A model generated the notes under the pieces. The model did not search any database. It saw only the letters and a program-made list of their open reading frames with translations, and was not told the origin of the DNA. From IMG/VR virus record IMGVR_UViG_3300032304_003098, positions 1-64,000 of that record: DNA of 64,000 nucleotides. The stretch is one strand, 5' to 3'. The stretch comes from a virus. Position numbers and translations under genes: made by a program. Positions 1 to 33,768 of this stretch are shown in pieces; position 1 is the stretch's first letter, and each line of letters starts with the position of its first letter.

Positions 1-1
1 A

Positions 2-1015: not shown

Positions 1016-1666
1016 ATGTTGAAAAAAATTATGGTAGGAACTCCATCTTATGATGGGACAGTTACTGTCCACTATGTTGCCTCTTTGGTTGCTGCTACTA
1101 AGGAAGCAGCAAAAAAAAATATTGATTTGGTGCCAGTTTTTCTTTCTTATGACGCCTTAGTACAGAGAGCCAGAAATGAACTCGTAAAACTTGCAGTTGA
1201 GTTCAATGTAGAAAGTCTAATTTTCATAGATCATGATTTGGAATTTAACCCACAATGGGTTGTTGAATTGGCAGAGAGTCAACTTGATGTTATTGGCGGA
1301 ACATATCCCAAAAAAACAGACGAAAAAGAAATTTATCCTATCTCAGCTAGTAATTTAGAATTAAATGGGGATGGATTAATAGAAGTCCAAGGAATTGGTA
1401 CTGGTTTCTTGAAACTGTCAAGAAAGGCCCTTTTAACCTTATGGGAGAAAAGTTCAATCTATTGGAACGAAGGAGCCCAGAATCGAATGGTTTTTGATAT
1501 TGGGATTATTGACGGTAACCTTTATGGAGAAGACAGGATGATGTGTAAAAAATTTACAGATCTAGGTTTTAAAATTTGGCTAAATCCTTCTATGTGCTGT
1601 AAACACATCGGTGTTAAAATCTACGAAAGAAATTTTTTAGATTATCTATCCAGATTGAAAAAATAA
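1016..1666 (+). CDS. GT-A fold (GT2-like) glycosyltransferase
   Basis: GTPSYDG start, RARNELV, FIDHD (DxD), GTGFL, GEDxxxC, HIG motifs. Confidence 0.7.
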   Translation: MLKKIMVGTPSYDGTVTVHYVASLVAATKEAAKKNIDLVPVFLSYDALVQRARNELVKLAVEFNVESLIFIDHDLEFNPQWVVELAESQLDVIGGTYPKKTDEKEIYPISASNLELNGDGLIEVQGIGTGFLKLSRKALLTLWEKSSIYWNEGAQNRMVFDIGIIDGNLYGEDRMMCKKFTDLGFKIWLNPSMCCKHIGVKIYERNFLDYLSRLKK

Positions 1667-1690
1667 TTTATTTCTGGGTTAATTTCCAAA

Positions 1691-1698
1691 GATATATA
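1691..1698 (+). promoter_or_regulatory. Putative late promoter GATATATA
   Basis: Motif recurs just upstream of many structural genes in this window. Confidence 0.6.
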
Positions 1699-1717
1699 AA
1701 AAAATTAATAGAAATCT

Positions 1718-2026
1718 ATGGCCATTCAGATTACAGGTTTATTCAAAAATCCAACCTCGAAATTAATCCACGACTCTCCTCTTTTGAAGATCGGAGCCCA
1801 TTTATCTTATCAAGGAAATTTGCACGTTGACCTTCATGTTGTCTCCGAAGATGGAATTCACCGAGATACCGTGGTTTTTTCAAACGTAGATCGTAGCAAG
1901 TTGGATTATGACATTTCTATTTCGGATTCTTATAACAGTCTTATTCACTCAATAGAAACTTTTGTTATTCCAGAACTACAATCAGCAAATTCGATTAATT
2001 CACAAGCAACGTTTTCTCGCACATGA
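1718..2026 (+). CDS. Hypothetical protein
   Basis: ORF behind a GATATATA motif. Confidence 0.6.
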   Translation: MAIQITGLFKNPTSKLIHDSPLLKIGAHLSYQGNLHVDLHVVSEDGIHRDTVVFSNVDRSKLDYDISISDSYNSLIHSIETFVIPELQSANSINSQATFSRT

Positions 2027-2304
2027 ACAATATAGAAGAAACAGGAAAAGAAGAATATCCAGCCATGATACAGCCAGAAGAATTAAAGAAAATTCAAGAA
2101 TTCGGGAAATCTGGGAATATGTTCTTGGTTGAATTTGGTTCTCTTAAGATAGAAGAAATTAATCTCCAAGAAAGGAAAAAAGAGACGGAAAGAAAATTTT
2201 TGAAATTTAGAGAGGAAGAAAAAAATTTTATGTCTCTAATGGAATATAAATACGGGAATGTCAATTTAGACCTAGAAACTGGTATTTTAACTCCTAGAAA
2301 TTAA
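2023..2304 (+). CDS. Small coiled-coil protein, paralog of 2513..2785
   Basis: Both have PEELxKIQ and a C-terminal KYGxxxLDxxxG. Confidence 0.65.
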   Translation: MNNIEETGKEEYPAMIQPEELKKIQEFGKSGNMFLVEFGSLKIEEINLQERKKETERKFLKFREEEKNFMSLMEYKYGNVNLDLETGILTPRN

Positions 2305-2422
2305 CGAGATTTTAGAAGTTCATCGTAGACCTCTGTCATTTTTTCTCCAGCATTTTTCCATGTAAAAATCTCACAGGTTTTTCTAGCCTATCTGGGACCA
2401 AACTTAAAATTTTAGGTTTCAT
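2301..2422 (-). pseudogene. Remnant of an internally deleted GT4-like glycosyltransferase
   Basis: Minus strand reads MKPKILSLVPD, then out of frame ARKTCEIFTWKNAGEKMTEVYDELLKSR*, resembling a GT-B/GT4 C-terminal helix. Confidence 0.45.
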
Positions 2423-2512
2423 TCTTGAATTTTAGATTGTACAGAAAAAACATAAAAATTCTAAATAACAGGATTGAAATATTTTGATGATTTCGGAGTA
2501 CAAAAAATAAAA

Positions 2513-2785
2513 ATGGAAAATCAAATTAAACTTACCCCTGAAGAATTGGATAAGATTCAAAATTTAAGGGAGGCAGCTCGAAATAACATTCAGCAAATAG
2601 GTCAACTCAATACACAAAAATTCTTTCTTGAAAGAGAGGTAACCACGGTTGGAGAACAAATTCAAAACCTTTATCAAGAGACTCTCCAATTAAACGAAAG
2701 CGAAAAACAACTCGTGGATGAAATCGTTTCCAAATATGGAGAGGGAAAGCTAGATTTCAATTCTGGCGTTTATAGCATTAATTGA
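2513..2785 (+). CDS. Small coiled-coil protein, paralog of 2023..2304 (ATG 2513 preferred over TTG 2474)
   Basis: MENQIKLTPEELDKIQ...KYGEGKLDFNSGVY. Confidence 0.65.
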   Translation: MENQIKLTPEELDKIQNLREAARNNIQQIGQLNTQKFFLEREVTTVGEQIQNLYQETLQLNESEKQLVDEIVSKYGEGKLDFNSGVYSIN

Positions 2786-2844
2786 ATTTTGAATTAAATT
2801 GATTCAAAATTAAAAGATCCAAATTTTTTTAAAATATATAGGTC

Positions 2845-4263
2845 ATGGCTACAGCCCGACCTTTTGCATACAATACTGGATCTGAAATTACAGGAACCGA
2901 ACAAATTGGAGATTTAGCAATTGGATTTCCGACAAACGGTTTTGCATCCACTGAACTCCAGTGGTGGAATGGACCCGACGAGGATTTAGGCTACGTAATT
3001 GCTGCATCTAATCCGGGTGGTACTAGACCTACCCCAGTTCCTGGGTTTTTTGCATCTGTTGGTTTTTTTAGATCTGCTGAAAAAAACGAAAATTCATTTG
3101 TTGCTTTAGCAAATGTTATTCAAAATGGTAGTACAGCTCCGTTTACGACTGGATCTGAGGCTAGAACCTGGCTTAACATAAATGGATATTGGACCTCCTA
3201 TCCGGTAATTGTAAATCAAACATTCGTGAGTATATGGACTACTTCATCATCTAATGAAACGATAGTATTACCCTTGGTATCAAATGGAACTTATAGTTTT
3301 GAAGTTGACTGGGGCGACGGTAACACACAAACTATTACAAGTTATACCCAAAGATCTCACACCTACACCACTGCAGGAAATTACACCATTTCTATTGATG
3401 GCACAATAGAGGGTTGGAATTTCAACACTGTTAATACGTCTAAAGACAAGATAAAATCTATTTTATCGTGGGGGTCTCTGAAATTGAGTAATACTGCAGG
3501 TCAGTTTGCCTATTGTACAAATTTAGACATCAGCAATGTTACTGACACCTTAAATTTAACAGGAATTACAAACTTAGGATTTTGTTTTGCCTTTTGTGAC
3601 AATTTGTACGGCATAGCTAACATAAATTCCTGGGATATGTCTGCAATCACAGACATTGGTTTAATGTTTTATAATTCTCCCAATTTTAATTCTCCAGTTG
3701 GAAATTGGAATACAAGTTCCGTTACATATGCGGCGGCTGTGTTCAGAAATGCTTTACCAGGACAATTCAATCAACCAATCAACAATTGGGATATGGGTGG
3801 GGTGACTGATTTGACCGAGATGTTCGCAAATTGTGTGAATTTTAACCAGGATTTGAGTTCTTGGGATGTTAGTTCTGTAACCAGTCTGTACCAGACATTT
3901 GCCGGGTGTAGTTCTTTCAATCAAGATTTAAGTTCTTGGAATGTTAGTTCTGTTACCAACATGAACACTACCTTTCTTGGCTGTTTTGTTTACAATCAAC
4001 CTTTGAATACATGGAACGTAAGCAGCGTTACAGATATGGGACAAATGTTCAGTGGAGCAAAGAAGTTCAATCAACCTTTAGGCAGCTGGAATGTTTGTTC
4101 GGTATCAAATATGATTTTAATGTTTGAAACAGCAGAAGAATTTGACCAAAATATCTCTGCTTGGACAGTACCATTAATCGGATCAAAACCTTTTTGGTTT
4201 GACGAAAACACTCCGGTCACTTGGACTGGAGGCGAAAAACCTCAATGGGGTGTTCCTTGTTAA
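2845..4263 (+). CDS. PKD-domain plus BspA/DUF285-type leucine-rich repeat protein, possibly a virion adhesin
   Basis: VDWGDG...HTYTTAGNYTISI (PKD); ~25-aa repeats FNQxLxxW(N/D)VSSVTxMxxMF. Confidence 0.8.
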   Translation: MATARPFAYNTGSEITGTEQIGDLAIGFPTNGFASTELQWWNGPDEDLGYVIAASNPGGTRPTPVPGFFASVGFFRSAEKNENSFVALANVIQNGSTAPFTTGSEARTWLNINGYWTSYPVIVNQTFVSIWTTSSSNETIVLPLVSNGTYSFEVDWGDGNTQTITSYTQRSHTYTTAGNYTISIDGTIEGWNFNTVNTSKDKIKSILSWGSLKLSNTAGQFAYCTNLDISNVTDTLNLTGITNLGFCFAFCDNLYGIANINSWDMSAITDIGLMFYNSPNFNSPVGNWNTSSVTYAAAVFRNALPGQFNQPINNWDMGGVTDLTEMFANCVNFNQDLSSWDVSSVTSLYQTFAGCSSFNQDLSSWNVSSVTNMNTTFLGCFVYNQPLNTWNVSSVTDMGQMFSGAKKFNQPLGSWNVCSVSNMILMFETAEEFDQNISAWTVPLIGSKPFWFDENTPVTWTGGEKPQWGVPC

Positions 4264-4280
4264 TAACAAGAACAAAGATT

Positions 4281-4307
4281 GAAATATTTTTGTCTTTAAG
4301 AGTATAA
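4281..4307 (+). promoter_or_regulatory. Putative ECF-type middle promoter GAAAT-N16-GTATAA
   Basis: Matches a bipartite motif recurring in 9 intergenic or leader regions. Confidence 0.45.
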
Positions 4308-4342
4308 ATCAAGATAATTGTCAAAATTAAAATTTACATCAA

Positions 4343-5404
4343 ATGGACTCTTGTGTTGATCTTCTTCGAAAAATAGAATATGATTTAACCCGGAATCTTG
4401 CACTTGTGAAATCAAAAATCCATGAAATTTCTGGGGAAAAACCTAGAATATTGTATATAGCTCCACATTTGTCTACCGGGGGAATGCCGCAATATCTCTG
4501 TAAGTGTATCGAGAAATTATTGCCTGCAGCAGAAATTTACTGTGTTGAGTATAGCAATCTCTCCGATGATTTTGTTGTTCAACGTAACAAAATCCAAAAT
4601 CTTTTGGGTGAAAATTATTTTAGATTAGATGGTGAAGATAAAACAGAATTGCTACAAATCGTCAAGAGAGTTTGTCCAGATGTCATTCACTTTCAAGATT
4701 TTGTAGAATTTTTCGTGGGAGATCAAATTTGCGAAAAAATATTTTCTCCAGACAGACCCTGGTTCATCTTTGAAACTTGTCATTCCTCTAATGTAAAACC
4801 TGATGATAAATTTTGGGCTCCTGACAAGATTGTCATGGTAAATAGGTGGATGGTAGAGGTTTTCAAAAATTCTGGGTTTGAACTCGATGTTTTAGAATAT
4901 CCAATAGAAAATTTTCCAAGAATGGAGAAAGAGCATGCACATACTTTATTGGGTCTTGACCCATCTAAAAAACACGTCATCAATATTGGTTTATTTACCA
5001 GAGGAAAAAATCAAGGAGAACTTTTCGAATATGCCAGACAATTAACGGATCTACCCATAGAATTTCATTTTATAGGCAACCAGGCGATCAATTTTCAAGA
5101 TTATTGGGAACCTTTGATGCAAAATATTCCAAGTAATTGTAAAATATGGGGGGAAAGGCACGACACCGATCTTTTTTATCAGGCCGCTGATTTATTTGTT
5201 TTTAATTCCACCTGGGAATTAAATCCCATCGTCATCAAAGAATCTTTGTCGTGGGGATTGCCCATCATGATGCGGAGACTTCCTTCCTATATGGACGATT
5301 ATGATTCAAATCCACTTGTGCATTATTTTGCCAAAGATTGGCACAAAAAAGACGATGATTACAATGTAATCAAAATTAAAGAAATTTTAGGATTTATCAC
5401 ATGA
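4343..5404 (+). CDS. GT4-family glycosyltransferase
   Basis: HLSTGGMPQY, IGLFTRGKNQ, FYQAADLFVFNSTWELNPIVIKESLSWGLP (E-X7-E). Confidence 0.85.
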   Translation: MDSCVDLLRKIEYDLTRNLALVKSKIHEISGEKPRILYIAPHLSTGGMPQYLCKCIEKLLPAAEIYCVEYSNLSDDFVVQRNKIQNLLGENYFRLDGEDKTELLQIVKRVCPDVIHFQDFVEFFVGDQICEKIFSPDRPWFIFETCHSSNVKPDDKFWAPDKIVMVNRWMVEVFKNSGFELDVLEYPIENFPRMEKEHAHTLLGLDPSKKHVINIGLFTRGKNQGELFEYARQLTDLPIEFHFIGNQAINFQDYWEPLMQNIPSNCKIWGERHDTDLFYQAADLFVFNSTWELNPIVIKESLSWGLPIMMRRLPSYMDDYDSNPLVHYFAKDWHKKDDDYNVIKIKEILGFIT

Positions 5405-6594
5405 ATAAAAGAGGCATAGAGGTTTATAAAAATTTGAAGAAAAATCCTTTGGTTAAAGTACCGGAGAAATTTGATTTTAAATTTAGTTTTGATTATGGTC
5501 CGAAGGTGGATATGATTGGCAATAGTCATCGAATTCACAAAACAATTAAATTCAAAGATCCCACCACCGGAGACTATGTGTACACTGGAGACATGACACC
5601 AGGTCTTTTTACCACTTTGTTCAGAAAATGGTTCACCCCTTGGATTGTTGAAGCCTATGATGGAGATAAATTGGTTTGGGAATTCGATTTCGAAAAGACT
5701 TTACCCAATCAAAAAATTATAATTTCATTTGATAGTAGTTCATTAGGAGACACCCTAGCATGGCTTCCCGTGGTAGAACTATTCAGAGAAAAGTTTTCAG
5801 CCGACGTTTATGTGACAACTTTTTGGAATTCCCTGGTAAGTCACTTTTTTCCAAAATTGAGATTTTTACATCCCGGATTTAGAGACCCAAACATCAAATT
5901 TGTTTTTGGTGTAGGCTGGTATGAAGAAGAAGACGGAAACGTTCACAAGAGAGATCCTAGATCCATTTCTTTACAACAAGTGGCAGGGGATATTCTGGGT
6001 ATAACTTTCGATAAAGACGTTTTACCTCCACAAATTCCGACCTGGCTCCCTGCGTCTTCCCGCCCTATTGAAAAAAAATATGTGTGTATTGGAACAGAAT
6101 CAACGGCTAACGCTAAGCATTGGCATCATCCAGGGGGTTGGCAAATTTTAGTTAACCATTTGAAGTCAATTGGATATGAGGTCATGGTGATTCACAGTCA
6201 ACAGAACACTTTAGAAGGAGTCATAGACCAAACTGGAGAAATTGATATGCTAGACCGTATGATTCAACTGTATCATGCTGATTTCTTTATAGGAATTGGC
6301 TCTGGACTTTCGTGGTTGGCTTGGGCTCTCAGAAAACCTGTGGTGATGATTTCTGGGTTTTCCAGCCCAACCTGCGAATTTTCAACCTCAAATTACCGGG
6401 TGATTAACACTGATGTTTGTCATGGGTGCTTCAACGACGTGAGACACAAATTCGACCGTGGAGATTGGAATTGGTGTCCCAGATTAAAAAATACAGAAAG
6501 AATGTTTGAATGTACCACGAAAATTCATCCCGAACAAGTAATTTTCAAGATTGAACAACTGATCCTAGAGCAAAAATTAATGACTCTGGAATAA
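5401..6594 (+). CDS. Autotransporter-type protein O-heptosyltransferase (Aah/TibC family)
   Basis: SLGDTLAW, FIGIGSGLSWLAWA, VVMISGFS and the iron-finger-like VCHGCFND...FDRGDWNWCP...FECT. Confidence 0.8.
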   Translation: MNKRGIEVYKNLKKNPLVKVPEKFDFKFSFDYGPKVDMIGNSHRIHKTIKFKDPTTGDYVYTGDMTPGLFTTLFRKWFTPWIVEAYDGDKLVWEFDFEKTLPNQKIIISFDSSSLGDTLAWLPVVELFREKFSADVYVTTFWNSLVSHFFPKLRFLHPGFRDPNIKFVFGVGWYEEEDGNVHKRDPRSISLQQVAGDILGITFDKDVLPPQIPTWLPASSRPIEKKYVCIGTESTANAKHWHHPGGWQILVNHLKSIGYEVMVIHSQQNTLEGVIDQTGEIDMLDRMIQLYHADFFIGIGSGLSWLAWALRKPVVMISGFSSPTCEFSTSNYRVINTDVCHGCFNDVRHKFDRGDWNWCPRLKNTERMFECTTKIHPEQVIFKIEQLILEQKLMTLE

Positions 6595-6600
6595 ATTGGT

Positions 6601-6608
6601 GATATATA
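6601..6608 (+). promoter_or_regulatory. Putative late promoter GATATATA
   Basis: Upstream of the neck/terminase operon. Confidence 0.65.
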
Positions 6609-6644
6609 CTCGAAAAGGTTCTCTTTTCGGAATATTCGCCATCC

Positions 6645-9194
6645 ATGTCTCCCTTACCTCCAAACAAAGCTTTATTCACTGGACTTCCCGTCTACAACGG
6701 GAACGGCGAGCAAAAAAACTTGTCTGATCCAAGATATGAATATCAGGATAATTTAGCCAACACCGCTAAAGTTCAAGAAACCAGCACCGATAATCTTTAT
6801 GGGACAACGGGAGCTGCTTTGGCCAGAGCAATTCAAATCGGCTGTAACGGATATCACACTGTTTTAGCTTCGAATGGAACCTATTATTATGCTCCCTGTC
6901 AATCTCAAGAATGGCTGATAGAAAGATTGACCCAATTAGACTCTGCCCTCAATTTTACCTATATTGGCAATTATAGAGTTCTAAGTTACGATCAACCTTT
7001 TTACTATGTAAGTTCTTTTAATGGCTGGATTATTGATGCAGCCAGTGCATTGGAAGGTTATAATGTTGATTTAGATACTGTTGCTGATGCCGAAATCCCA
7101 AACGGAATTACTATTGATTTCAGATATTCCATCGATGGAGAAACCTGGTCTTTATGGGTTAACATGGGTTTTGCTACGACTGGTTTACAAAATTCTTATG
7201 GCTCGGGAGAAAAAGCTGAAATTTTTTCCGTCGATCTGGATCCAAGTAAACCTTTTTATCCCGAATTCAGATTTACTTCTGTTATCATCAATCAAGACGG
7301 CAGTATTGCCTACCAATCAGACGAACCTATTTCTCCAAGTGTGGTGATTGTGAATTTCGAGTTGGATCTAACTTACGATGATGAGATAGCAACTGGACCC
7401 GATAATTTGGTTATTCGCAATCCTGTTCCCCAATGTTCACCTGAACAATCCAATCGTCCTGTCGTTTTCAATGAATGTGGACCTTTCACATTCAATCCCT
7501 ATAACATTAACAAGGCGATTAATCTTTATCGTGATTTAAGTTTAATTGTTAATAAAATGTTTGGTTTTGAAACTAATTATTATTCGGTTCAACCTCAATC
7601 TAGGTCCAAAGATGTGGTCCTGAAGGAATGGACTTTATATGATGTGGTCGAGGAAAGATGTGTGAAAGTCATGGTGCCGCAGAATCAATTTCCTGACAAC
7701 AAACCCAATTACGACCCGTTTGGTATTTCTTTCGAAGAACCCTTTGAAATACACATCGACAAAGTGTATTTTGAAAGTTTTTTTGGTAGAGGATCCCAGC
7801 CCAGAAAAAGAGATATTTTGTATTTTCCTCTTACAAATCGAATTTATGAGATCAATTCAACTTACCTGTTTAGGGATTTCATGTATTCCCCCGTTTACTT
7901 TAAAATCGAGTTGAAGAAATACAACCCTAAATCTAACACGTACTTTAGAGACCCGGCCTACAAAGAAGAGCTGGATGGAATCGCACTAAACTCGCAAAAG
8001 TTATTTGGAGCCGAAACTGAAGCACAGGAAGAATTGATCACCAAACCCCAACAGTATGTCACGACCACGAACGACCGGGGGACCGATCCCACGAGATCGT
8101 ACGTGTACGAGAAACTCCCAATTGTGAATTATGATTTAAACAACAACTGGACAATTGTTTTCAACAATTATTATGATTTATATGATGCTTTCCAGTCTAA
8201 TCCTGAATTTGTCTTTGAGCCAGACAAATATCGCAGTGGCGTGAGATATTTAACCACTCCCAAATTGGATGCGGAGGGAGAAATAGCTTTTACCTGCTGG
8301 TTTTCCATTAAAAATTATGTGAATGAAAATTCACTGACCAAAAAACCCTTTGCTCCCATGCCGATGGTTCAGGAAACAGTGACCCCCACCAGGATTGTCT
8401 ATAACACCTCACCATATAAACATGGACTTTCCCCATGGCTGGGTTTTGCAGAGAATCCTGATGGATATGTTGCTATCAAAGCAAGTCAAAATCAATCGGG
8501 TGGATTTCAGGTCACCTCTGTGATTGATCAATTTAAATTTTCGGTCGCAAACCCGAATTTACCTTTTTCTCTGGATCCTCCTCCTCTCAAAATGCAAAAG
8601 GCTCAAGCCAGAAATTTGATAGCAGGTGATTATCTGGATCCAAACACCGGACCCCAAGGTCTGCGAGTAGATATAATTTATTCTGGTTCCCAGGAACCCA
8701 ACAACACAAACTTTCTCCAGGAGGGAAGCATTCAGATTAATTTGAACGATTTTGTGTTTAATTCCAAACTTCAGTTCGTACCCGAGATCGGAGAATGGTA
8801 CGCTATTGTGGTAAACATTTCGAATAAATACCATCAAATGGGGGTAAACATGTGGAAGATGAGTTACGATGCCAACAACCCACAAGAACAGAGTTCAAAT
8901 CTGATCACGGTCCATGAAGATTTCAGAACTTTATCTCAGACCTATACATTCGACTTACCGAAAGACATCGTGACGAATCCAGCTAGCCCCTTATATGGAA
9001 CTGATAACAATGCCTATCGAATTTATACCTCCCCTGTTTTATTATCTAATATTAGAATTTTCAAATCGATGATAGATATTAATAAACAATCTATTGTGTT
9101 GAATCAAAATGTTGTGAGGGACGCTCAACTTGCCCACATCATCGATAACGCCAAACCAGTTTTAGCCATCCCCAAAATCCCCAGAAAGGGTTAA
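6645..9194 (+). CDS. Extended neck protein (T4 gp14-like core with added N- and C-terminal domains)
   Basis: Central PRKRDILYFPLTNRIYEI resembles the gp14 PxEGDLIYFPL motif; C-terminal LamG/ConA-like features (FTCWF, EWYAIVVN, LSNIRIF). Confidence 0.6.
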   Translation: MSPLPPNKALFTGLPVYNGNGEQKNLSDPRYEYQDNLANTAKVQETSTDNLYGTTGAALARAIQIGCNGYHTVLASNGTYYYAPCQSQEWLIERLTQLDSALNFTYIGNYRVLSYDQPFYYVSSFNGWIIDAASALEGYNVDLDTVADAEIPNGITIDFRYSIDGETWSLWVNMGFATTGLQNSYGSGEKAEIFSVDLDPSKPFYPEFRFTSVIINQDGSIAYQSDEPISPSVVIVNFELDLTYDDEIATGPDNLVIRNPVPQCSPEQSNRPVVFNECGPFTFNPYNINKAINLYRDLSLIVNKMFGFETNYYSVQPQSRSKDVVLKEWTLYDVVEERCVKVMVPQNQFPDNKPNYDPFGISFEEPFEIHIDKVYFESFFGRGSQPRKRDILYFPLTNRIYEINSTYLFRDFMYSPVYFKIELKKYNPKSNTYFRDPAYKEELDGIALNSQKLFGAETEAQEELITKPQQYVTTTNDRGTDPTRSYVYEKLPIVNYDLNNNWTIVFNNYYDLYDAFQSNPEFVFEPDKYRSGVRYLTTPKLDAEGEIAFTCWFSIKNYVNENSLTKKPFAPMPMVQETVTPTRIVYNTSPYKHGLSPWLGFAENPDGYVAIKASQNQSGGFQVTSVIDQFKFSVANPNLPFSLDPPPLKMQKAQARNLIAGDYLDPNTGPQGLRVDIIYSGSQEPNNTNFLQEGSIQINLNDFVFNSKLQFVPEIGEWYAIVVNISNKYHQMGVNMWKMSYDANNPQEQSSNLITVHEDFRTLSQTYTFDLPKDIVTNPASPLYGTDNNAYRIYTSPVLLSNIRIFKSMIDINKQSIVLNQNVVRDAQLAHIIDNAKPVLAIPKIPRKG

Positions 9195-9206
9195 TAAAAT
9201 CAACTT

Positions 9207-9989
9207 ATGCCTAGACGTAAACCCAAGCCAGAGAAGGTTGTCCAAGAAAGAATCAAAGCAAATTTAGATTCCATTTTATTGGAAGAAAATTTGGAAATTG
9301 AATCTTTAACTGTCGATAACCTGCCCCGGATAAAAACTACGGAAGTTCTGGATTTTCAAAACCAAATCCAATCTACCGGCACAGACTCTAAAGATCTTTT
9401 AGAATCTCTGGTAAAATTCTATGTGGATGAAAATTTGATTGATGAATCAGATTTTATTGTTTACAAGAAAAAAATTGATGCGATGAATGTTGCATCTATG
9501 ATGTTACAATTGAAAACAGCCCAACATGCGATCACTAAGCTCGTAGAAGAAATTGATTTAGGAAACACTGCCCCGCGAATGTTCGAAGTTTTAGCCCAAC
9601 TTCAATCTCAAATTATGCAGATGTCCAAAGATCATCAGGCCTATTTAGACAAAACAGAGGCTAGTTATAAAAATTTGAGAAAACAGCTGGAAACAAAAGT
9701 TTCTTCTGGTTCAGTTCCTTTGCAACAAAATCAAAGCCAAGACGGAAGTTTTGAGACGATTAAGAATCCAGAGCAAGGATTTAATTCGGCTTTAAGAGTT
9801 AGAGGAACTAAAAATTTAATGGAGGGTCTTCGTGACATTTTAGGCACAGAGATCCAAGACGTAAAAATCGAGGAAGTCAACGAAAATGCAGTGGTAAACG
9901 CCAGACAAAAAGCAAGTCAAGACGCCAGCAAAAATGTCTATGATAACGGAGAATCGACTTTTGAAATAGACGACGAATTGTTTCAATAA
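9207..9989 (+). CDS. Probable terminase small subunit (gp16-like)
   Basis: PRMFEVLAQL resembles the gp16 PRAYEV motif; directly upstream of the large terminase. Confidence 0.55.
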   Translation: MPRRKPKPEKVVQERIKANLDSILLEENLEIESLTVDNLPRIKTTEVLDFQNQIQSTGTDSKDLLESLVKFYVDENLIDESDFIVYKKKIDAMNVASMMLQLKTAQHAITKLVEEIDLGNTAPRMFEVLAQLQSQIMQMSKDHQAYLDKTEASYKNLRKQLETKVSSGSVPLQQNQSQDGSFETIKNPEQGFNSALRVRGTKNLMEGLRDILGTEIQDVKIEEVNENAVVNARQKASQDASKNVYDNGESTFEIDDELFQ

Positions 9990-10000
9990 AAAGAATTCGA

Positions 10001-11800
10001 ATGAGTAAACACGAGGAAGAACAAATTGACTCCAATTACTGGTCCACTAAAAGAATTGAGGACTTATTAAGAAAAGTAGAAGAGGAAGGATTAGATTACA
10101 AATCGGTAGATAATCCATTTCATGATGGGGATCCTGATTTGAAAAAATCTAATTTGTTGTGGGAATACACCACAGAGGAGGTTCAAGAAATGCAGAAGTG
10201 CGCAAAAGACGTGGTTCATTTTGCACAATATTGCCAGGTAATGACAGACGATGGTTTACAGTACATTGGACTTAGAGATTATCAAGAATCTGTTCTACAA
10301 GAATATCAAAATAATCGTTTCAATATTTTATTGGCCCCGAGACAGATCGGAAAATCGATTTGTTCTTCTATCATTTTGATGTGGTATTTACTCTTCAACC
10401 ACGATAAAAACGCCATGATTTTAGCTAATGTGGGTTCTACAGCCGAAGAATTGATGGACAAAATTAAATCTATTGTTAAAGGATTGCCTTGGTTTCTAAA
10501 ACCCGGCATGATTGTAAACAACGTTATGTCAATGAAGTTTGATAACGGGTGTCGGGCCATAGCCAAGACAACTACCAAAACTACCGCGATTGGTTATACA
10601 ATTCATTTTCTGTATATGGACGAGTTTGCACACATTCATCCTAACTTCATTGAATCTTTTTTCAGATCTACCTATCCAACCGTATCTTCATCCAAAGTTT
10701 CTAGGATTATTATTACCTCGACACCAAATGGAATGAACAAATTCTATGATATTTATCAAGGAGCATTGTCCGGAGACAATTCTTTCAATCCGGTTCGGGT
10801 TGATTGGTGGCAAGTTCCAGGCAGAGACGAAGAATGGAAAAGAGAGGAAATCGCCAACTTAGGCAGTGAAGAACTTTTCAATCAAGAGTATGGAAATCAA
10901 TTTTTGAGTTCCACTTCTTTGCTTCTAGGTTCTAACGAGTTAAAAAAAATCAAATCCAATGAATCTGAGTATGTATGGAAAGAAATAGATGTTTTAGGAG
11001 ATTTGAGCATTGTATATGAAAACTTCAGATGGCATCCCAAATTTTCTTTGGACGACGCTTTTTTGGAAGATAAAAATTTTGTTTTTTCTGTGGATTTAGC
11101 CGGCGGGGGGAGAGGAGATTTTACGGTGATTAATATTTTTAGAGTTGTGCCTTTACCTAAAAAATTGATAGAATCTAACACCGATTACAAAGACGAAGCG
11201 GATTTTTTTGGTTTACTTCAGGTTGGGGTCTTCCGGGATAATGGTATTCAAATTGAAGATATTAAAAAAATGTTGGAGGCTTTGATTCTAAATGTTTTTG
11301 ACAAAGATAGACTCACAATCATTTTAGAGATGAATTTCAGAGGAGAACTTCTCTTAGATAAACTAATTTCTAATGATGAAATTTCTTTAGACATGTTTTT
11401 ACACACCAAACACACTGAATCTGCACGTTCAGCTAAACCCGGGATCAAATACAACGAAAAAAACAAAATGAAATATTGTGAAATGTTAAGGTCTCTGTTC
11501 CGACAAAATAGAGTCATGGTCAATGAAAAGGCCTGGACAATTCCCGAACTTTTTTCTTTTGGTTTGAATAACAGTGGCACATATTCTTCTCAATCTGGAC
11601 ACGATGACGTAGCTATGACCCTGGTTAACTTATCTGCTTTGTTTGAAACTTCTGCTTTCTATGATTTGATTGGGGATCTGTATGACAGAATGGACGAAGG
11701 TTATAGAGATTTGATTGAGTCCAAATTAGACGACAAGGAAAACGATGGAAAAACCAAGGAAGGAAACTTCTATAATTCTTTTAGTAAACTTATGTCGTGA
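10001..11800 (+). CDS. terL: Terminase large subunit (T4 gp17-like)
   Basis: LRDYQ, Walker A APRQIGKS, Walker B LYMDEFAH, ITSTPNG, nuclease SVDLAGG and GHDDVAM. Confidence 0.95.
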   Translation: MSKHEEEQIDSNYWSTKRIEDLLRKVEEEGLDYKSVDNPFHDGDPDLKKSNLLWEYTTEEVQEMQKCAKDVVHFAQYCQVMTDDGLQYIGLRDYQESVLQEYQNNRFNILLAPRQIGKSICSSIILMWYLLFNHDKNAMILANVGSTAEELMDKIKSIVKGLPWFLKPGMIVNNVMSMKFDNGCRAIAKTTTKTTAIGYTIHFLYMDEFAHIHPNFIESFFRSTYPTVSSSKVSRIIITSTPNGMNKFYDIYQGALSGDNSFNPVRVDWWQVPGRDEEWKREEIANLGSEELFNQEYGNQFLSSTSLLLGSNELKKIKSNESEYVWKEIDVLGDLSIVYENFRWHPKFSLDDAFLEDKNFVFSVDLAGGGRGDFTVINIFRVVPLPKKLIESNTDYKDEADFFGLLQVGVFRDNGIQIEDIKKMLEALILNVFDKDRLTIILEMNFRGELLLDKLISNDEISLDMFLHTKHTESARSAKPGIKYNEKNKMKYCEMLRSLFRQNRVMVNEKAWTIPELFSFGLNNSGTYSSQSGHDDVAMTLVNLSALFETSAFYDLIGDLYDRMDEGYRDLIESKLDDKENDGKTKEGNFYNSFSKLMS

Positions 11801-11809
11801 TGTTCTGAA

Positions 11810-11868
11810 GATATATAAAGAGGAACTCTAGTAATATCTCCAATTGTGATAATTCATTTCGATATATA
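11810..11868 (+). promoter_or_regulatory. Tandem late promoters GATATATA (11810 and 11861)
   Basis: Two copies in the 96-bp gap before the sheath gene. Confidence 0.65.
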
Positions 11869-11896
11869 CTAGGGAAAAAATATCTTCAAAACGATA

Positions 11897-15439: not shown

Positions 15440-15492
15440 CACATTGAATGAATTTTAAAAGAAGAGATAAATAAAAAAAGAAAAAAGAATTA

Positions 15493-16047: not shown

Positions 16048-16062
16048 AAAATTAAAAAATAA

Positions 16063-16644: not shown

Positions 16645-16709
16645 TCGGAACTTTTTTTCTTTGATACATATATAAGAAACACATTTTTGTGTGACTTAAA
16701 CACCTTTAT

Positions 16710-17976: not shown

Positions 17977-18015
17977 TGAGTTAATAGTGGATCTGGATAT
18001 ATAATTTTATTTTAT

Positions 18016-19455: not shown

Positions 19456-19493
19456 AAAAATTAAGGTTTCATTTTTTTAAGGCACATACAGTT

Positions 19494-19501
19494 TATATTT
19501 G
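19494..19501 (+). promoter_or_regulatory. Putative host-type (Bacteroidota -7 box TAnnTTTG) early promoter
   Basis: TATATTTG just upstream of the dCMP deaminase-sigma operon. Confidence 0.4.
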
Positions 19502-19525
19502 GACTTTTTAACCCCAAGATCTTTC

Positions 19526-20104
19526 ATGAGTTTAATTAAATTCAAGTTCAAAGAAATTCCTTCGTTCGATTTTTTTCAAAATTTGTCAGAGTATGATGAA
19601 TTTTCATGGGTTGCTAACCCTAAATCCGATTTTATTTATATCTTCAGTGAATTAGAAAATCTTACCGACGAAACTTTTTATACGGCCAAAGATATTAAAA
19701 CGGATCCTGTGTATTTGTCTATGGCAGAAACCTGGGCCACTAATTCATATTGCAGAAGAATGAAAGTAGGGAGTTTGATTGTCAAAAACAAATCCATTAT
19801 TTCGGATGGATACAATGGTTCTCCTACAGGATTCCCCAATCAATGTGAAGATGAAGATTTTGTTACTTTAAATTATGTGTTACATGCCGAAGCAAACGCA
19901 ATCACCAAACTTGCCAAAAGTACTCAGAGTTCCGAGGGTTCAACTATGTACGTGACGGTTTCTCCTTGTTTTGAGTGTTCAAAATTGATTATTCAATCGG
20001 GAATAAAAAGAATAGTTTTTGGCAAAGTCTATCGAAAACCTGAGCCCTTGTCTTTTTTATTACAGGCAGGAATTGAAATTGTAAAATTGGGAAAAAAAAT
20101 CTAA
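19526..20104 (+). CDS. dCMP deaminase
   Basis: SYCRRMKVG, GYNG, HAEANAI, SPCFECSK zinc motifs. Confidence 0.92.
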   Translation: MSLIKFKFKEIPSFDFFQNLSEYDEFSWVANPKSDFIYIFSELENLTDETFYTAKDIKTDPVYLSMAETWATNSYCRRMKVGSLIVKNKSIISDGYNGSPTGFPNQCEDEDFVTLNYVLHAEANAITKLAKSTQSSEGSTMYVTVSPCFECSKLIIQSGIKRIVFGKVYRKPEPLSFLLQAGIEIVKLGKKI

Positions 20105-28900: not shown

Positions 28901-29499
28901 AAGACTTTGTAGAACAAGCTAAAAAGTTGAGAAATGAATTCTCTTCTCTGTCCAAATTGAATTCTTCAGTGAATGAAGAATTTTTGAAAAAATACGGCCC
29001 AAATTCAGATGAATCTTTAGAAAAATTTTCCTCTTTCAAAAGTGGAAAAATTTACTTTGCACTTAATACTACAAAATACAAAGCAGGAGAAAAGAATTCT
29101 TTTGTAAATAGATATCCGTGTTTCCTGTTCCTTTCAGAGGAAAGAACACAAAGCGGTATAATCTGTAAAGTGATGGACTTAACTATAATTCCTTCTGATT
29201 ATAGAGCGGAAATTCTCACCAGACTGACTTCAACTTTTGGTGAAATTATTCAAGAGAATATAAGAAACTTACAAAGTTCCCAAATGCCTTTAAATTTAAA
29301 AGGCGAAAATTTACAAAAAATTCTGAAAGGTACGGGATACGAGTTTGCAATTTTTGGTTTTAAAATGGAAAATTTACAAAATATCAAAATTGTAGATTAT
29401 GCAGATTGGATTAAAATTCCCTTCCTAAGTCATGCTTCTTTAGAGGGTCTCTCATTACAAAAGATATATAGCGAATATAAATCGAAAATAAAAATCTGA
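28897..29499 (+). CDS. Possible DNA end-protector (gp2-like) protein
   Basis: GKIYF...NRYP motif, adjacent to the gp4-like gene; weak match. Confidence 0.35.
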   Translation: MKDFVEQAKKLRNEFSSLSKLNSSVNEEFLKKYGPNSDESLEKFSSFKSGKIYFALNTTKYKAGEKNSFVNRYPCFLFLSEERTQSGIICKVMDLTIIPSDYRAEILTRLTSTFGEIIQENIRNLQSSQMPLNLKGENLQKILKGTGYEFAIFGFKMENLQNIKIVDYADWIKIPFLSHASLEGLSLQKIYSEYKSKIKI

Positions 29500-29529: not shown

Positions 29530-31176
29530 ATGGCAGGATTTAACGAGAATCCAAACACCAACCCTATTTTTCAAAGAATCAGGGATTCCGTCAAAAATCT
29601 GAGTAATTTCGGATTGAGATATGGAGACATGGTGGTAAAAAATTCTCAAGCTATCGGTACCACGGAAGCGGAATTTTTAAAAAAAGGTCCAATTGAAGAC
29701 GAGACGACTTTTTTTTCTTTAGGCCGTCAGGATACCACAACAAGGCAATACATTTCTTATTTCGATAAAGATTATGCAGGAAAAAGAGACTATCTGAGAA
29801 AATTTTCTTTGAATCCAGAAATCGAATACATTTTAGATACTGTTTGTGATGAATCTATTTCCTATGATGGTTATAATTTTTTTGCTTATCCGGCATTTTT
29901 AAACATTACAGGAATTAAGGAAGGGGTCATAGATAAGATTGACTCCACATACAAGAAATTGTATGACATGTTTGGCTTCAACGATGACATTTCTGCTTGG
30001 CAGTATTTCAGGCAATTATTGGTTGATGGATTTGTTGCCTTTGAAATTATTTACGACGATAAGGGAAAAAACATTATAGGTTTCAAAGAACTCGATGCAA
30101 CCACGCTGATGCCATCTGTAGAAAAACAGAAGGATGGTACTTTTTTGAATGTTTGGTATCAATACCCTAAAGACGAAAGAAAAAGGAGAATGCTTTATGA
30201 TTCTCAGATTATTTACATCTCCTACGCCAAAGGCAATTCTGTGTCAAGAGTTAGTTACACCGAAAGATTAATCCGCCCTTATAACGTCCTGAGGATCATT
30301 GAATATACACGTGTTATTTGGTCAGTGATGAATGCATCATTTCGTCTCAAAATGACAGTTCCCGTGGGGTCCAGATCGCAACAAAAGGCGATGCAAACCT
30401 TAGGTGAATTAATGAGTATCTATAAAGAAGACATTCAGTTCAATGATGAAAGTGGAGAACTTTCAGTAAATGGTCAACCTAAGATTCAGTTTTACAAAAA
30501 CTATCTGATGCCCAAAGGTGCATTAGGAACTCCAAACATTGAGCCTCTAAACACTGTCGGTCCAAATTTAAATGATCCGGCTCCACTGGCTTATTTTTTT
30601 GATAAACTTGTTCAGGAATCAAAAATTCCTTTCTCGAGATTTCAAGGTCCAGATGGAGGATCTATTGGTAAATATGCTAACTCTGCTGAAGGCCTGGATA
30701 AGGAAGAAATTAGGTTTGCCAAGTTTATCATGAGGTTAAGATCTATTTTTCAAGATATTCTAATCAAACCTTTGTGGATTCAATTGTGTAGAGACTTTCC
30801 CCAGTTGGAGAAAGATTATATGTTCAGAAGTCAATTGGGCCTTACCTTTATTTCTGATAATCCCTTTAGGGTGAATCAGGAGATAGAAACTATGAACAAA
30901 AGAAAAGAGTCTATTGATGCCATGTACCAGTTGGTAGATGGAGAGGGACAACCTTTCTTTTCTTTGGGATATTTGATTGAAAATTTTCTTGGTATGACGG
31001 AAGACGATATTCGTTCTAACGAAGAGGCCAAGGAAAAAACAGAAAAAAAGAAAAAGAAATCTGAACCAGGAGAAGAGGACGGAGAAGAAGCTGGAGCAGC
31101 CCCAGGGGAATCCCCTACACCTCCAGCAGGTCCTGAACCTGGTGGTACACCCCCTGAAACAGAAACACCGGAATAA
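29530..31176 (+). CDS. Portal protein 1 (T4 gp20-like)
   Basis: PEIEYILD, FRQLLVDG, SYTERLIRPYNVL, KIPFSRF, EEIRFAKFIMRLR; GATATATA at 29463. Confidence 0.88.
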   Translation: MAGFNENPNTNPIFQRIRDSVKNLSNFGLRYGDMVVKNSQAIGTTEAEFLKKGPIEDETTFFSLGRQDTTTRQYISYFDKDYAGKRDYLRKFSLNPEIEYILDTVCDESISYDGYNFFAYPAFLNITGIKEGVIDKIDSTYKKLYDMFGFNDDISAWQYFRQLLVDGFVAFEIIYDDKGKNIIGFKELDATTLMPSVEKQKDGTFLNVWYQYPKDERKRRMLYDSQIIYISYAKGNSVSRVSYTERLIRPYNVLRIIEYTRVIWSVMNASFRLKMTVPVGSRSQQKAMQTLGELMSIYKEDIQFNDESGELSVNGQPKIQFYKNYLMPKGALGTPNIEPLNTVGPNLNDPAPLAYFFDKLVQESKIPFSRFQGPDGGSIGKYANSAEGLDKEEIRFAKFIMRLRSIFQDILIKPLWIQLCRDFPQLEKDYMFRSQLGLTFISDNPFRVNQEIETMNKRKESIDAMYQLVDGEGQPFFSLGYLIENFLGMTEDDIRSNEEAKEKTEKKKKKSEPGEEDGEEAGAAPGESPTPPAGPEPGGTPPETETPE

Positions 31177-31178
31177 TT

Positions 31179-32780
31179 ATGGCAGGTTTTAATGATGATA
31201 GTAGTCAACAGCGTTCCTTTTTAGGCAACTTGTATCGAAATTTGTCTAGAATCGGGAGATTTGGGATGCAATATGAGGATATGGTAATCCGAAATTCCCA
31301 GGCTATAGGAGCCACCGAATCTACATTCTTTAATAATCAAGGAACTGGATTTACTGAGGATGATGCTTTCTTTTGGACTTTAGGTTATCAAGACACTAGG
31401 GTAAGAAAATATATTGCCTATTTCGATAAAGATTATTTGGGCAAAAGAGAATTTCTCAGAAAATTTGCTCTAAATGGAGAAATTGATTTTATTCTAGACA
31501 CCTTGTCTGACGATGGAATTAATTACGATGACAAAAATTTCTTCGGCTATCCTTCTCTATTAAATGTAGATTTGAAACCGGAAGTTCGAACCAAAGTAGA
31601 GGAGAATTTCAGAACTCTGTATATGCTTTTTGGTTTTCAACAAAGCACTTTGGCTTGGCAGTATTTTCGTCAATTTCTAGTAGATGGTTTTTTAGCTTTT
31701 GAAATTGTTTATTCTACGGATGGCAAGAAAATTGTTGGATTCAAAGAATTAGATGCCACATCTTTGCAACCAGCCACCGAACAACAGCCCAACAAGGAAT
31801 TTCAACAAATTTGGATTCAATATCCCGGAGATCCCCGGATGACCCGTAAACTAAAAGCTGAACAAGTTATTTATCTCTCTTATGCTAAAGGAAACTCCGT
31901 TTCTAGAGTAAGTTATACAGAAAGACTTATTAGATCCTATAATATTCTAAGGGTGATGGAAAACACCAGAATAATTTGGAATGTGATGAATGCCTCATAT
32001 CGCTTGAAGTTTGTCATCCCAGTCGGAACCCAATCCGCCCAGAAAGCGATGCAAACCTTGGGTCAACTTATGTCTCAGTACAAGGAGGAAATTCAAATTA
32101 ACGATACTTCCGGTGAATTAACAGTAAACGGAGCACCCAAGATTCAATTTTATAAAAATTATTTGTTCCCTGAAAAGGACGGAGAAAGCCCAGACATCAA
32201 CACATTAAATCCCAATGGTCCTGATTTCAATGTGATGGAAAATGTTGTGTATTTTTACAATAAATTGAAATTAGATTCGAAGATCCCCTATGCTAGGTTT
32301 GCTTCCCGTAGTGGACCAGCTACCTATCAAATTTCTATCGATCAGTTGGAGAGGGATGAAATTAGATATGAAAAATTTGTAACCCGCCTGAGATCAGTCT
32401 TTCAAGAGCTTTTGGTTAAACCTCTGTACATTCAAACCTGTTTAGATTTTCCAGCTTTATCTGAAGATAGATCTTTCAAAGTAAATTTGGGGTTAAATTT
32501 TGTGAAGGAAAATGTCTTTGAACAACTCATTATGTTGTCCAATTACACCAAAAGAACTGCTTTCATAACAGCTTTAGGTGACATGAAACAAAGAATAGGA
32601 GAGGAAGAAATTCCCTATTTCGATAAAGAATGGCTGATTAAAAGGTGGCTAGGTTTAAGTATGGACGAATATAGGGCCAATGAAAAATACAAAGAGGAAG
32701 AAAAGAAAAGAGCAGAAAAAGATAAGAAGAACAAGAAGCCAGAGGGAGCAGAAGGAGGAGCACCGGAATTCACTCTTTAA
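31179..32780 (+). CDS. Portal protein 2 (full-length paralog)
   Basis: Collinear with portal 1: YFDKDY, FRQFLVDG, YAKGNSVSRVSYTERLIR, QKAMQTLG, RDEIRYEKFVTRLR. Confidence 0.88.
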   Translation: MAGFNDDSSQQRSFLGNLYRNLSRIGRFGMQYEDMVIRNSQAIGATESTFFNNQGTGFTEDDAFFWTLGYQDTRVRKYIAYFDKDYLGKREFLRKFALNGEIDFILDTLSDDGINYDDKNFFGYPSLLNVDLKPEVRTKVEENFRTLYMLFGFQQSTLAWQYFRQFLVDGFLAFEIVYSTDGKKIVGFKELDATSLQPATEQQPNKEFQQIWIQYPGDPRMTRKLKAEQVIYLSYAKGNSVSRVSYTERLIRSYNILRVMENTRIIWNVMNASYRLKFVIPVGTQSAQKAMQTLGQLMSQYKEEIQINDTSGELTVNGAPKIQFYKNYLFPEKDGESPDINTLNPNGPDFNVMENVVYFYNKLKLDSKIPYARFASRSGPATYQISIDQLERDEIRYEKFVTRLRSVFQELLVKPLYIQTCLDFPALSEDRSFKVNLGLNFVKENVFEQLIMLSNYTKRTAFITALGDMKQRIGEEEIPYFDKEWLIKRWLGLSMDEYRANEKYKEEEKKRAEKDKKNKKPEGAEGGAPEFTL

Positions 32781-32790
32781 ATTAGTATAG

Positions 32791-33768
32791 ATGGAATTCA
32801 AAAATTTATTTTCTACTAAAAAAATTCTAGTAGTTGGGGATTCTATTTTAGATCACTATGTGTATGGAAAGGTGCACAGGATATCGCCAGAAGCTCCTGT
32901 TCCTGTTGTGTTGAAGAGTGAGGAAGAATTTTTTCTAGGCGGAGCTGCTAACGTGGCCCAGAATATTACAGCCTTTGGAGCCCAGTGTACTTTGTTATCC
33001 TTAACTGGGCTCGATTTAGAGAGGGATATATTATCCCAAAAGTGTTTTGAACAAAATATAAATCCGGTTTTTATAGTAGATGAAAGTAGACCCACAACTA
33101 AAAAAACAAGGGTGTTGGGGAACAAACACCAAATTGTAAGAATCGATCACGAGAAAACACACGGATTGTCTGTTGGATTAAGTCTTAAAGTATCCCAAAT
33201 TTTCGAAAATGAAATTCTAAACCATGACGGGGTTATTTTTCAAGACTATGGTAAAGGTTTGCTAACTAGAGATTTACTGAAGCTTTTAATTCAAATTTCA
33301 CAAAAACACAATCGACAAATTTTAGTAGATCCCAAAGAACCTGATCTTTTTAGATACCAAGGAGTTTCTTATATCAAACCAAATTTGAATGAGTTCAAGT
33401 CCATGCTAAATTTGAAAATCGAAGAAGAGTTGGAAATTCCTCAAATCGTAGATTATGCTCAAAAAGCATTGAGTGATTTTGATTATGAATGTTTTCTCAT
33501 CACCTTGTCAGAACGTGGAATTTTGGTGGTTAAAAAAGACTTCTGGCACCACGTACCTGGCATCAAAGTGGATGTTTCTGATGTGTCTGGGGCTGGTGAC
33601 ACAGTCAGTGCAGTATTTGCTTTGGGAATTTTTGCTGGACTAAGAAAGCCTATTTCTGAGTTGGAACTTGTCCAAATTGCAGAGTCGGCAAATTTGGCTG
33701 GATCTCTAGTTTGCAGACACCTGGGGGCGGTGCCAGTTGACCCTGTTGAATTATTTAATTACCCTTAA
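32791..33768 (+). CDS. rfaE: D-glycero-beta-D-manno-heptose-7-phosphate kinase (HldE/RfaE domain I, PfkB family)
   Basis: LVVGDSILDHY, RISPEAPVPV, GGAANVA, DYGKG, DVSGAGDTV. Confidence 0.9.
   Translation: MEFKNLFSTKKILVVGDSILDHYVYGKVHRISPEAPVPVVLKSEEEFFLGGAANVAQNITAFGAQCTLLSLTGLDLERDILSQKCFEQNINPVFIVDESRPTTKKTRVLGNKHQIVRIDHEKTHGLSVGLSLKVSQIFENEILNHDGVIFQDYGKGLLTRDLLKLLIQISQKHNRQILVDPKEPDLFRYQGVSYIKPNLNEFKSMLNLKIEEELEIPQIVDYAQKALSDFDYECFLITLSERGILVVKKDFWHHVPGIKVDVSDVSGAGDTVSAVFALGIFAGLRKPISELELVQIAESANLAGSLVCRHLGAVPVDPVELFNYP

Follow-up and report, generated by a model that had tools for sequence, protein, structure and literature searches.

The stretch of viral DNA analyzed here, called the window, is the first 64 kb of the 109,577-bp IMG/VR virus record IMGVR_UViG_3300032304_003098, whose completeness is put at ~40% by CheckV. 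The + strand carries almost all of the window genes. Near the start of the window, just past a tail fiber gene that is cut by the contig start, lies a cassette of glycosyltransferase genes that includes a homolog of the TibC/Aah-family protein O-glycosyltransferases (bacterial autotransporter heptosyltransferases, BAHT), and a heptose-7-phosphate-kinase homolog is found further along, behind two portal genes (Table 1). The source is a large phage of lake water that has not been cultured, and close relatives of the stretch 4343-6594 are contained in lake-water DNA runs from 18 studies. The nearest counterparts of its TerL protein belong to megaphages, Sphingomonas phage PAU, Tenacibaculum phage PTm1, and Lak phages. 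The nearest named cellular homologs of the kinase are in Bacteroidota and Ignavibacteriales metagenome-assembled genomes (MAGs).

Table 1. Features of the window discussed in the text
Feature	Position	Strand	Remarks
Tail fiber, C-terminal part, cut by contig start	2..994	+	PHROG tail-fiber families
GT-A-fold glycosyltransferase	1016..1666	+	21 nt past fiber gene; unnamed PHROG
GATATATA motif	1691..1698	+	Nearest upstream of GT4-BAHT pair
DUF285 (BspA-like repeat) protein	2845..4263	+	Variable cargo in cassette; Pfam DUF285 3e-99
GT4 glycosyltransferase, BAHT partner	4343..5404	+	Pfam Glycos_transf_1, Glyco_trans_1_4
TibC/Aah-family (BAHT) protein O-glycosyltransferase	5401..6594	+	397 aa; heptosyltransferase by homology
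GATATATA motif	29463..29470	+	Ahead of portal-portal-kinase gene run
Portal paralogs	29530-31176 and 31179-32780		Tandem, full-length, 2 nt apart; both PHROG 213, E 6e-60 and 9e-57
Heptose-7-phosphate-kinase homolog (PfkB)	32791..33768	+	Starts 10 nt past second portal gene
Possible divergent GT25-like transferase	58268..58939	+	Weak; system membership uncertain

By its sequence and predicted fold, the 397-aa protein is a genuine member of the BAHT family. It scores 282.4 bits against the TIGR04414 model hepto_Aah_TibC, for which the curated equivalog cut-off is 200, and only 28.5 bits against TIGR02193, the model of lipopolysaccharide (LPS) heptosyltransferase I. The sole matches in a PDB sequence search were two TibC entries, with an E value of 2e-57 for 4RAP. 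We built an AF2 model on 34 phage homologs (pLDDT, 89.9), and in Foldseek this model matched TibC (4RAP) with TM scores of 0.82-0.85 and an rmsd of 2.7 Å over ~384 columns, so that the superposition takes in the N-terminal barrel; WaaC and WaaF reached TM scores of only 0.41-0.59.

The residues on which TibC depends are also in place. TibC has Asp-110 as its catalytic base, binds the sugar through Thr-226, Lys-230, Arg-286, and Trp-305, and holds an iron finger formed by Cys-339, Cys-342, Cys-358, and Cys-370 (PMC4358343). The corresponding residues in the window enzyme are D117, T235, K239, R286, and W305, with the putative iron-finger cysteines at C340, C343, C359, and C371, and across 34 phage BAHT domains D117, T235, K239, W305, and the four cysteines are invariant. 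The window enzyme thus resembles the TibC-TibA and Aah-AIDA-I systems of Escherichia coli (TIGR04414; 4RAP/4RB4) in family, fold, N-terminal beta-barrel, catalytic Asp, Thr/Lys/Arg/Trp donor-binding residues, and four-Cys finger, and also in that its gene adjoins a gene for a long repetitive surface fiber. It differs from them in being phage-borne, in having a beta-hairpin thumb 9 residues shorter, in carrying Gly at position 300, and in its coupling to a GT4 enzyme. There is no autotransporter passenger beside it; the adjoining repeat protein is instead a tail fiber with a Gly-Ser/Thr-Ser collagen-like tract.

The coupling to GT4 is physical at the level of the genes. The 3′ end of the GT4 gene overlaps the start of the BAHT gene by 4 nt, and the GT4 protein exceeds the gathering cut-offs of both of its Pfam families (33.1 versus 26.4 bits and 33.8 versus 27 bits). 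We found at least 63 viral loci with a BAHT homolog in IMG/VR. Nineteen of these, the window included, belong to the window clade and have a fixed gene order of GT4, BAHT, an 849-aa neck-like protein, a 260-aa protein, TerL, and sheath. In most of the other phages (>40) the BAHT domain forms the C-terminal half of a protein of ~700-1200 aa that has a GT4 domain in front, and some of these fusion proteins have added methyltransferase or GT2 domains. The window GT4 is 40-46% identical to the BAHT-fused GT4 domains (E 1e-56 to 1e-91), and it is just as close to GT4+FkbM-methyltransferase proteins that adjoin BAHT. A GT4-BAHT module is present in the cultured Microcystis phage Mel-JY01 as well, within a 1226-aa protein annotated only as a methyltransferase. 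The structural neighbors of phage BAHTs include collagen-repeat fibers, DUF5907/Gly-rich fibers, TIG and RCC1 repeat proteins, sheath, and portal. In the window, the 849-aa protein downstream of BAHT (6645-9194) gave weak neck or head-closure matches only, and it is followed by TerL and then by a sheath of 1180 aa. An original prediction, made from the letters of the sequence and its open reading frames, had described an Aah/TibC-type heptosyltransferase with a Cys iron finger that is coupled to a GT4 and sited between tail fiber and neck genes, and had named the LPS enzymes of family GT9 as the grouping that would speak against it; the model searches, the structural comparison, and the gene order all agree with that description.

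Comparison with other phages suggests the fiber just upstream, and specifically its proline-free Gly-Ser/Thr-Ser tracts, as the best acceptor candidate. The part of the fiber that lies in the window has NNVAIG..NTTG beta-helix-like repeats and an S74 chaperone domain. A contig 99% identical to the window (L005) reaches 927 bp further upstream, and in it the fiber (L005:2-2368) consists, in order, of at least 150 residues of Gly-Ser-Ser and Gly-Thr-Ser triplets without proline, the NNVAIG..NTTG repeats, and the S74 chaperone, with Pfam matches to Collagen (6e-22) and Peptidase_S74 (5e-10). The triplet tracts of relatives extend up to ~1050 residues, and their X and Y positions are 98% Ser or Thr. 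A second protein, cut by the 3′ end of the record (G000 108272-109576), has two long Gly-Ser/Thr-Ser tracts. Two other proteins of the record (G000 100402-103469) carry short collagen triplets of the ordinary GPQ/GEP type.

The association of such tracts with BAHT was examined from both sides. With a tract defined as at least 7 triplets that are at least 60% Ser/Thr, tracts were present in 35 of the 63 BAHT loci (991 kb) and in none of 114 viral control loci (971 kb) drawn by an arbitrary 14-mer (p 5e-20). The reverse test started from viral contigs of at least 40 kb picked solely by the DNA pattern (GGN WSN WSN)x8; BAHT was present in 16 of 35 contigs picked in this way (15 above the cut-off) versus 0 of 24 random contigs (p 4.8e-5). 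The tract lies 0.3-6.6 kb from BAHT in 11 of these 16 contigs, where ~3.5 would be expected by chance. Among the matches, the BAHT proteins range in length from 683 to 1527 aa, and the genomes range from 50 to 548 kb.

Other parts of the virion have features that could be thought to attract a BAHT enzyme. TibC is known to act on a beta-helix whose short loops carry Ser, and the window fiber does have its NNVAIG..NTTG repeats, so that the acceptors could be these repeats, or the Ser/Thr-Gly loops of the sheath, capsid, or baseplate, rather than the collagen-like tracts. In the sheath and in large baseplate or fiber proteins, G-x-[ST]-G motifs are more frequent than shuffled expectation (z 5-8), but the motif is generic in beta-rich structural proteins and shuffled sequences are the sole reference for the z scores, and we set these motifs aside as evidence for an acceptor. 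The cross-phage signal, on the other hand, follows collagen-like tracts specifically, and the bacterial neighbor gene described below ends in a (GSS)n tail without beta-helix repeats. We consider acceptors of this other kind improbable. The original prediction had proposed the NTTG repeats together with the loops of sheath and capsid, the collagen-like tracts not being among its candidates; nothing singles out the latter loops, and the former keep a place as a possible target.

The closest bacterial BAHT is found in an Arenicellales MAG, is 43% identical, and has no GT4. Its gene converges on that of a lipoprotein-like protein, whose last ~85 residues are a (GSS)n run. There are two such chromosomal loci in the MAG (L072 5968-7113 and 7194-7844, with a second copy in L073), and the lipoprotein-like gene also carries a CarboxypepD_reg domain. 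This bacterial pair indicates that cellular acceptors of such a kind exist, which gives some weight to an account in which the glycosyltransferases and the sugar kinase alter envelope glycans or surface proteins of the host and so block superinfection or change adsorption. Enzymes of the GT4 and GT-A families, both represented here, often act on lipid-linked glycans. Clusters of glycosyltransferase, PfkB, and nucleotidyltransferase genes in jumbo phages have in fact been read as serving outer-polysaccharide modification (Iyer et al. 2021; PMC7824862). Against such remodelling of the host, the known BAHT enzymes are protein-specific (PMC4358343), the cassette sits within the late structural block beside fiber genes, and the phages encode (GSS/GTS)n tracts themselves, usually within a few kilobases of BAHT. 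The window phage, moreover, appears to be lytic and T4-like, and no lysogeny genes were seen in the annotated parts of the window. Taking these points together, we rate host-surface remodelling as quite unlikely.

The gene that follows the fiber encodes a GT-A-fold enzyme. Its product gave nothing above the cut-off in Pfam, where a weak GT2 match has an E value of 0.077, and the lead came from the ESM Atlas. The AF2 model (pLDDT, 96.4) has top Foldseek matches that are all GT-A enzymes, with E values down to 2.6e-10; the best of them are STIV A197, LH3, COLGALT1, Mnn9, and PBCV-1 A64R, at TM scores of 0.5-0.65, and among these LH3 and COLGALT1 are collagen glycosyltransferases. The D72-x-D74 motif is invariant in 42 homologs. 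A glycosyltransferase at 1016, as first proposed, is therefore well founded in the predicted fold and the invariant DxD. The evidence for a further transferase at 58268 is slighter: the ESM Atlas gives a GT25-like lead at 0.96, the window protein itself has no Pfam match, one of 28 homologs matches Pfam GT25 at 2e-4, and one homolog has a JGI GT25 name. A PDB profile search for 58268 found nothing, and no useful match came from searching PDB sequences with 1016, 58268, and 54274. A third candidate of the original prediction, at 54274-55137, found no support as a glycosyltransferase in Pfam, NCBIfam, PHROGs, or PDB sequences.

A quite different use of glycosyltransferases in phages is the decoration of hypermodified DNA bases by GT-B enzymes, as the T4 glucosyltransferases do. 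There are known examples of DNA glycosylation by phage GT-B enzymes (cited in PMC12619734), and the window phage has a dCMP deaminase. The 109 kb record, however, contains no thymidylate-synthase-like hydroxymethylase, the window enzyme is a full-length TibC homolog with N-terminal barrel and iron finger, and modification of DNA would leave the association with collagen-like tracts unexplained. We rejected this reading for want of a thymidylate-synthase-like gene in the record and regard it as very improbable.

The link to heptose comes from the kinase. Its best family is TIGR02198 (rfaE_dom_I) at 299.1 bits, the next PfkB family reaching 59 bits, and its relatives in the window clade score 302-318 bits. 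Over its full length it can be aligned with HldA, a heptose kinase of solved structure (4E84; E 1e-45, residues 9-322); the N-terminal GD..LD.Y..G...RISPEAPVPV segment and the GAGD segment align, and RISPEAPVPV and GAGD are identical in the two proteins. Like HldA, and as in Bacteroidota genomes, the window kinase stands alone; unlike HldA, it falls below the equivalog cut-off, is phage-borne, lies behind portal genes, and has no other pathway genes with it in the available DNA. In every window-clade record that reaches far enough, the kinase is ~27 kb from BAHT. A second, more distant phage lineage, with kinases 45-60% identical, has BAHT above the cut-off in each of its four records of sufficient reach. 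Kinase and BAHT are retained together down to ~48% kinase identity. More widely, an HldE-like kinase or nucleotidyltransferase is present in 18 of 59 BAHT phage records versus 0 of 24 random viral contigs (p 0.001), or, by a rough count of lineages, in 8 of 20 BAHT lineages versus 0 of 24. An adenylyltransferase scores above its curated cut-off in two BAHT-bearing records.

The rest of the ADP-heptose pathway is another matter. Neither gmhA, gmhB, nor rfaE domain II was found in the 109 kb record (~40% complete) or in five relatives of 71-128 kb, whose contigs cover one genome segment and break at the same repeats, so that the other ~60% of the genome is unseen; gmhA was found in none of the BAHT-bearing records searched. 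With no gmhA, gmhB, or adenylyltransferase in the record or its relatives, the phage would at most boost host ADP-heptose, and most likely it draws on the host pathway and raises its output. In the presumed host phylum the pathway is common: among sampled Bacteroidota genomes, 99 of 151 have the kinase, and all five genomes that hold the nearest cellular kinase homologs have gmhA. Single-sequence scans of bacterial genomes returned two BAHT loci and zero kinase relatives. The original prediction had placed an HldE/RfaE-domain-I kinase directly behind the portals, had the phage boost or supply ADP-heptose, and had started from the premise that many Bacteroidota lack LPS heptose. The kinase is of the type and in the place described, and it is retained with BAHT in two lineages; supply of the pathway by the phage is not supported, since the genes it calls for were not found in the DNA searched, and the premise is weak in view of the Bacteroidota genomes.

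The active site bears on whether heptose is the sugar transferred. The window BAHT keeps all four sugar-binding residues of TibC, including R286, and the enrichment of HldE-like genes over random contigs and the shared retention of kinase and BAHT likewise speak for heptose. It is conceivable that the acceptor is the same and the donor another nucleotide sugar, with the kinase kept for an unrelated use such as host LPS core or other heptose phosphate use. The 27 kb between kinase and BAHT would agree with this, as would the lack of a convincing heptose gene in several complete BAHT phages, the replacement of Arg-286 in 21 of 34 phage BAHT domains (13 keep Arg), and the residue at position 300, which governs selectivity between D,D- and L,D-heptose and is Pro in TibC, Ser in Aah, and Gly or Ser, never Pro, in phage BAHTs. 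We place a donor other than heptose in the window phage on the unlikely side, although it has a better chance than the alternatives above; between lineages, comparison of the phage sequences suggests that the donor may differ. We had also considered the Arg-286/Gly-300 subtype of BAHT as a predictor of phage heptose genes. All strong heptose matches in the first set were within Arg-type BAHT lineages; the independent set, which contained a complete 548 kb Arg-type phage without heptose genes and a complete Val-type phage with a short kinase and a nucleotidyltransferase, did not reproduce the link, and the predictor was dropped. Short HldE-domain-I-like kinases of ~250 aa, covering only model positions ~7-66 and 96-305, occur in five records (G014, G017, G060, G080, and G086), and three of these (G060, G080, and G086) also have a domain-II-like nucleotidyltransferase with a score below the cut-off.

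A short motif gives some indication of timing. The window contains 17 copies of GATATATA, where 1.5 are expected, and every copy is on the + strand. The copies (at 1691, 6601, 11861, 25122, and 29463, among other sites) are mostly just upstream of structural genes, such as those for the first portal, the neck-like protein, and the sheath. From its distribution it looks like a late-promoter-like element. The kinase comes after the portals and lacks a separate copy of the motif, and for this reason it is probably expressed late. Scans of 1-7000 for sigma-70 promoters and terminators were at chance level. In one freshwater metatranscriptome there are short, near-identical contigs on several genes of 1-20000, among them one that matches 185 nt of the BAHT gene (5880-6064); DNA carry-over being possible, we take this as a weak sign that the BAHT region is transcribed, and we read nothing into the stretches that have no such contig.

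With modest confidence, we favor the view that these genes constitute a cassette for glycosylation of the virion fiber, in which BAHT sugar-coats the collagen-like tracts of the phage's own fiber, the GT4 and GT-A enzymes assist, and the kinase boosts the donor. Late in infection, in the cytoplasm, BAHT would transfer a sugar onto Ser and Thr residues of the proline-free Gly-Ser/Thr-Ser tracts, with the NTTG beta-helix repeats of the same fiber as a possible second target. The sugar would most likely be heptose, taken from host-made ADP-heptose. The GT4, and probably the GT-A enzyme, would then extend the glycan or add further sugars, and the kinase would raise flux through the host pathway of GmhA, kinase, GmhB, and adenylyltransferase without replacing it. 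We infer that the coat could shield the fiber, stiffen it, or tune its binding to receptors. Of the virion heptosylation proposed in the original prediction, the identity of BAHT, its GT4 partner, the type of the kinase, and the late structural setting are retained; phage supply of the donor and the transferase at 54274 are unsupported, and the Bacteroidota premise is weak. A wider generalization, that many large aquatic phages coat proline-free Gly-Ser/Thr-Ser fibers Ser by Ser with BAHT-GT4 enzymes and that in this lineage the kinase tunes the supply of host ADP-heptose, is offered tentatively, as plausible but falling somewhat short of probable.

Several observations weigh against fiber glycosylation of this kind, or against parts of it. 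The acceptor is putative, all of the evidence for it being genomic association; 28 of the 63 BAHT loci have no tract within 10 kb, and the samples compared are of modest size and include related phage lineages that share both traits, so that the counts of tracts and BAHT overstate their independence. The thumb segment is 24 residues long in the window enzyme and 23-29 residues long across the phage homologs, compared with 33 in TibC, and the hairpin tip that builds the TibC dodecamer (Phe-265/Val-266) has no counterpart; with a thumb 9 residues shorter, the ring mechanism of TibC may not apply, and ring assembly of the window enzyme is in doubt. The heptose-contacting Arg-286 is replaced in many phage BAHTs, which is why the donor may vary by lineage. 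The kinase, at 299.1 bits, is below the curated equivalog-domain cut-off of 345. In the first set, four BAHT phages with complete genomes lack a convincing heptose gene (G014, alone among them, has a weak PfkB match at E 3.9e-15), and the complete 548 kb phage with an R286-type BAHT likewise has none, so that the kinase is dispensable for BAHT function. Finally, no copy of GATATATA belongs to the GT4-BAHT pair itself.

The proposed system has parallels in several known ones. In mycobacteriophages, virion glycosylation has been demonstrated by experiment (Freeman et al. 2023, as cited in PMC12619734): capsid and tail-tube subunits of these actinobacteriophages bear glycans at their C-termini. 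As there, phage glycosyltransferases lie here beside structural genes, the phage's own virion being the demonstrated target in that case and the proposed one in this; the enzyme family (BAHT), the fiber-tract acceptor, the host phylum, and the heptose link set the present case apart. The sugar clusters of jumbo phages, with PfkB kinase, nucleotidyltransferase, and glycosyltransferases, comprise the same kinds of genes in large phages and were proposed to modify host polysaccharides against superinfection (Iyer et al. 2021; PMC7824862); the text of that account has 0 occurrences of "heptos" and of "collagen" and makes no mention of TibC. For the large freshwater "moraphages" described in 2025, four core glycosyltransferase families have been noted, their identities not being given (PMC12619734).

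Cellular surface fibers offer a looser comparison. Repetitive, Ser/Thr-rich surface fibers such as Bacillus BclA and the Ser-rich-repeat adhesins are densely O-glycosylated by dedicated transferases, the latter by the GT4 enzymes GtfA/B. The similarity to GtfA/B, a GT4 that acts on Ser-rich repeats, is one of analogy only, the enzymes and sugars being unrelated and the system cellular. To our knowledge, virion glycosylation among phages has been established experimentally only for mycobacteriophages, and we know of BAHT enzymes only as modifiers of virulence adhesins in Gram-negative pathogens. In the literature we found no paper that connects TibC-type enzymes to phages, or one that connects collagen-like proteins to heptosyltransferases. 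If our reading is correct, these fibers would be a new class of viral glycoprotein and the first heptosylated virion component, and they would present a new type of acceptor for a structurally unusual enzyme family, extending the fields of both virion glycosylation and BAHT enzymes. Environmental phages would have a way to shield, stiffen, or retune their fibers, and the heptose-pathway and other sugar genes of large aquatic phages, hitherto read as tools for the host surface, would be accounted for.

The region between the fiber and the GT4-BAHT pair is variable. Apart from this phage, only the 99%-identical contig L005 has a DUF285 gene within the cassette, and a relative's lake-water DNA contig skips 444 bp inside this gene (3173 to 3618), from which we conclude that the number of DUF285 repeats varies. 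In sister phages (L009:4401-4961 and the relatives L010-L014 and L022) the same region holds a gene for a SET-domain protein (Pfam SET 6e-12), possibly a protein lysine methyltransferase, and an extra opposite-strand GT4. In other clades (L040-L043, L055, and L062-L066) the BAHT fusion genes have as neighbors genes for a sulfotransferase, an APS kinase, and a small GT9-like protein, a combination suggestive of sulfated glycans. In other phages (L044-L051) the gene directly 3′ of GT4-BAHT encodes a portal.

Contigs across the whole window clade terminate at Gly-Ser/Thr-Ser repeats. The possibility that the 109 kb record is a near-full circle was rejected because relatives extend past both of its ends and all contigs break at collagen-like repeats. 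The tail sheath (11897-15439, 1180 aa) has an insert at about residues 405-511 that resembles Ig-like pieces of other virion proteins.

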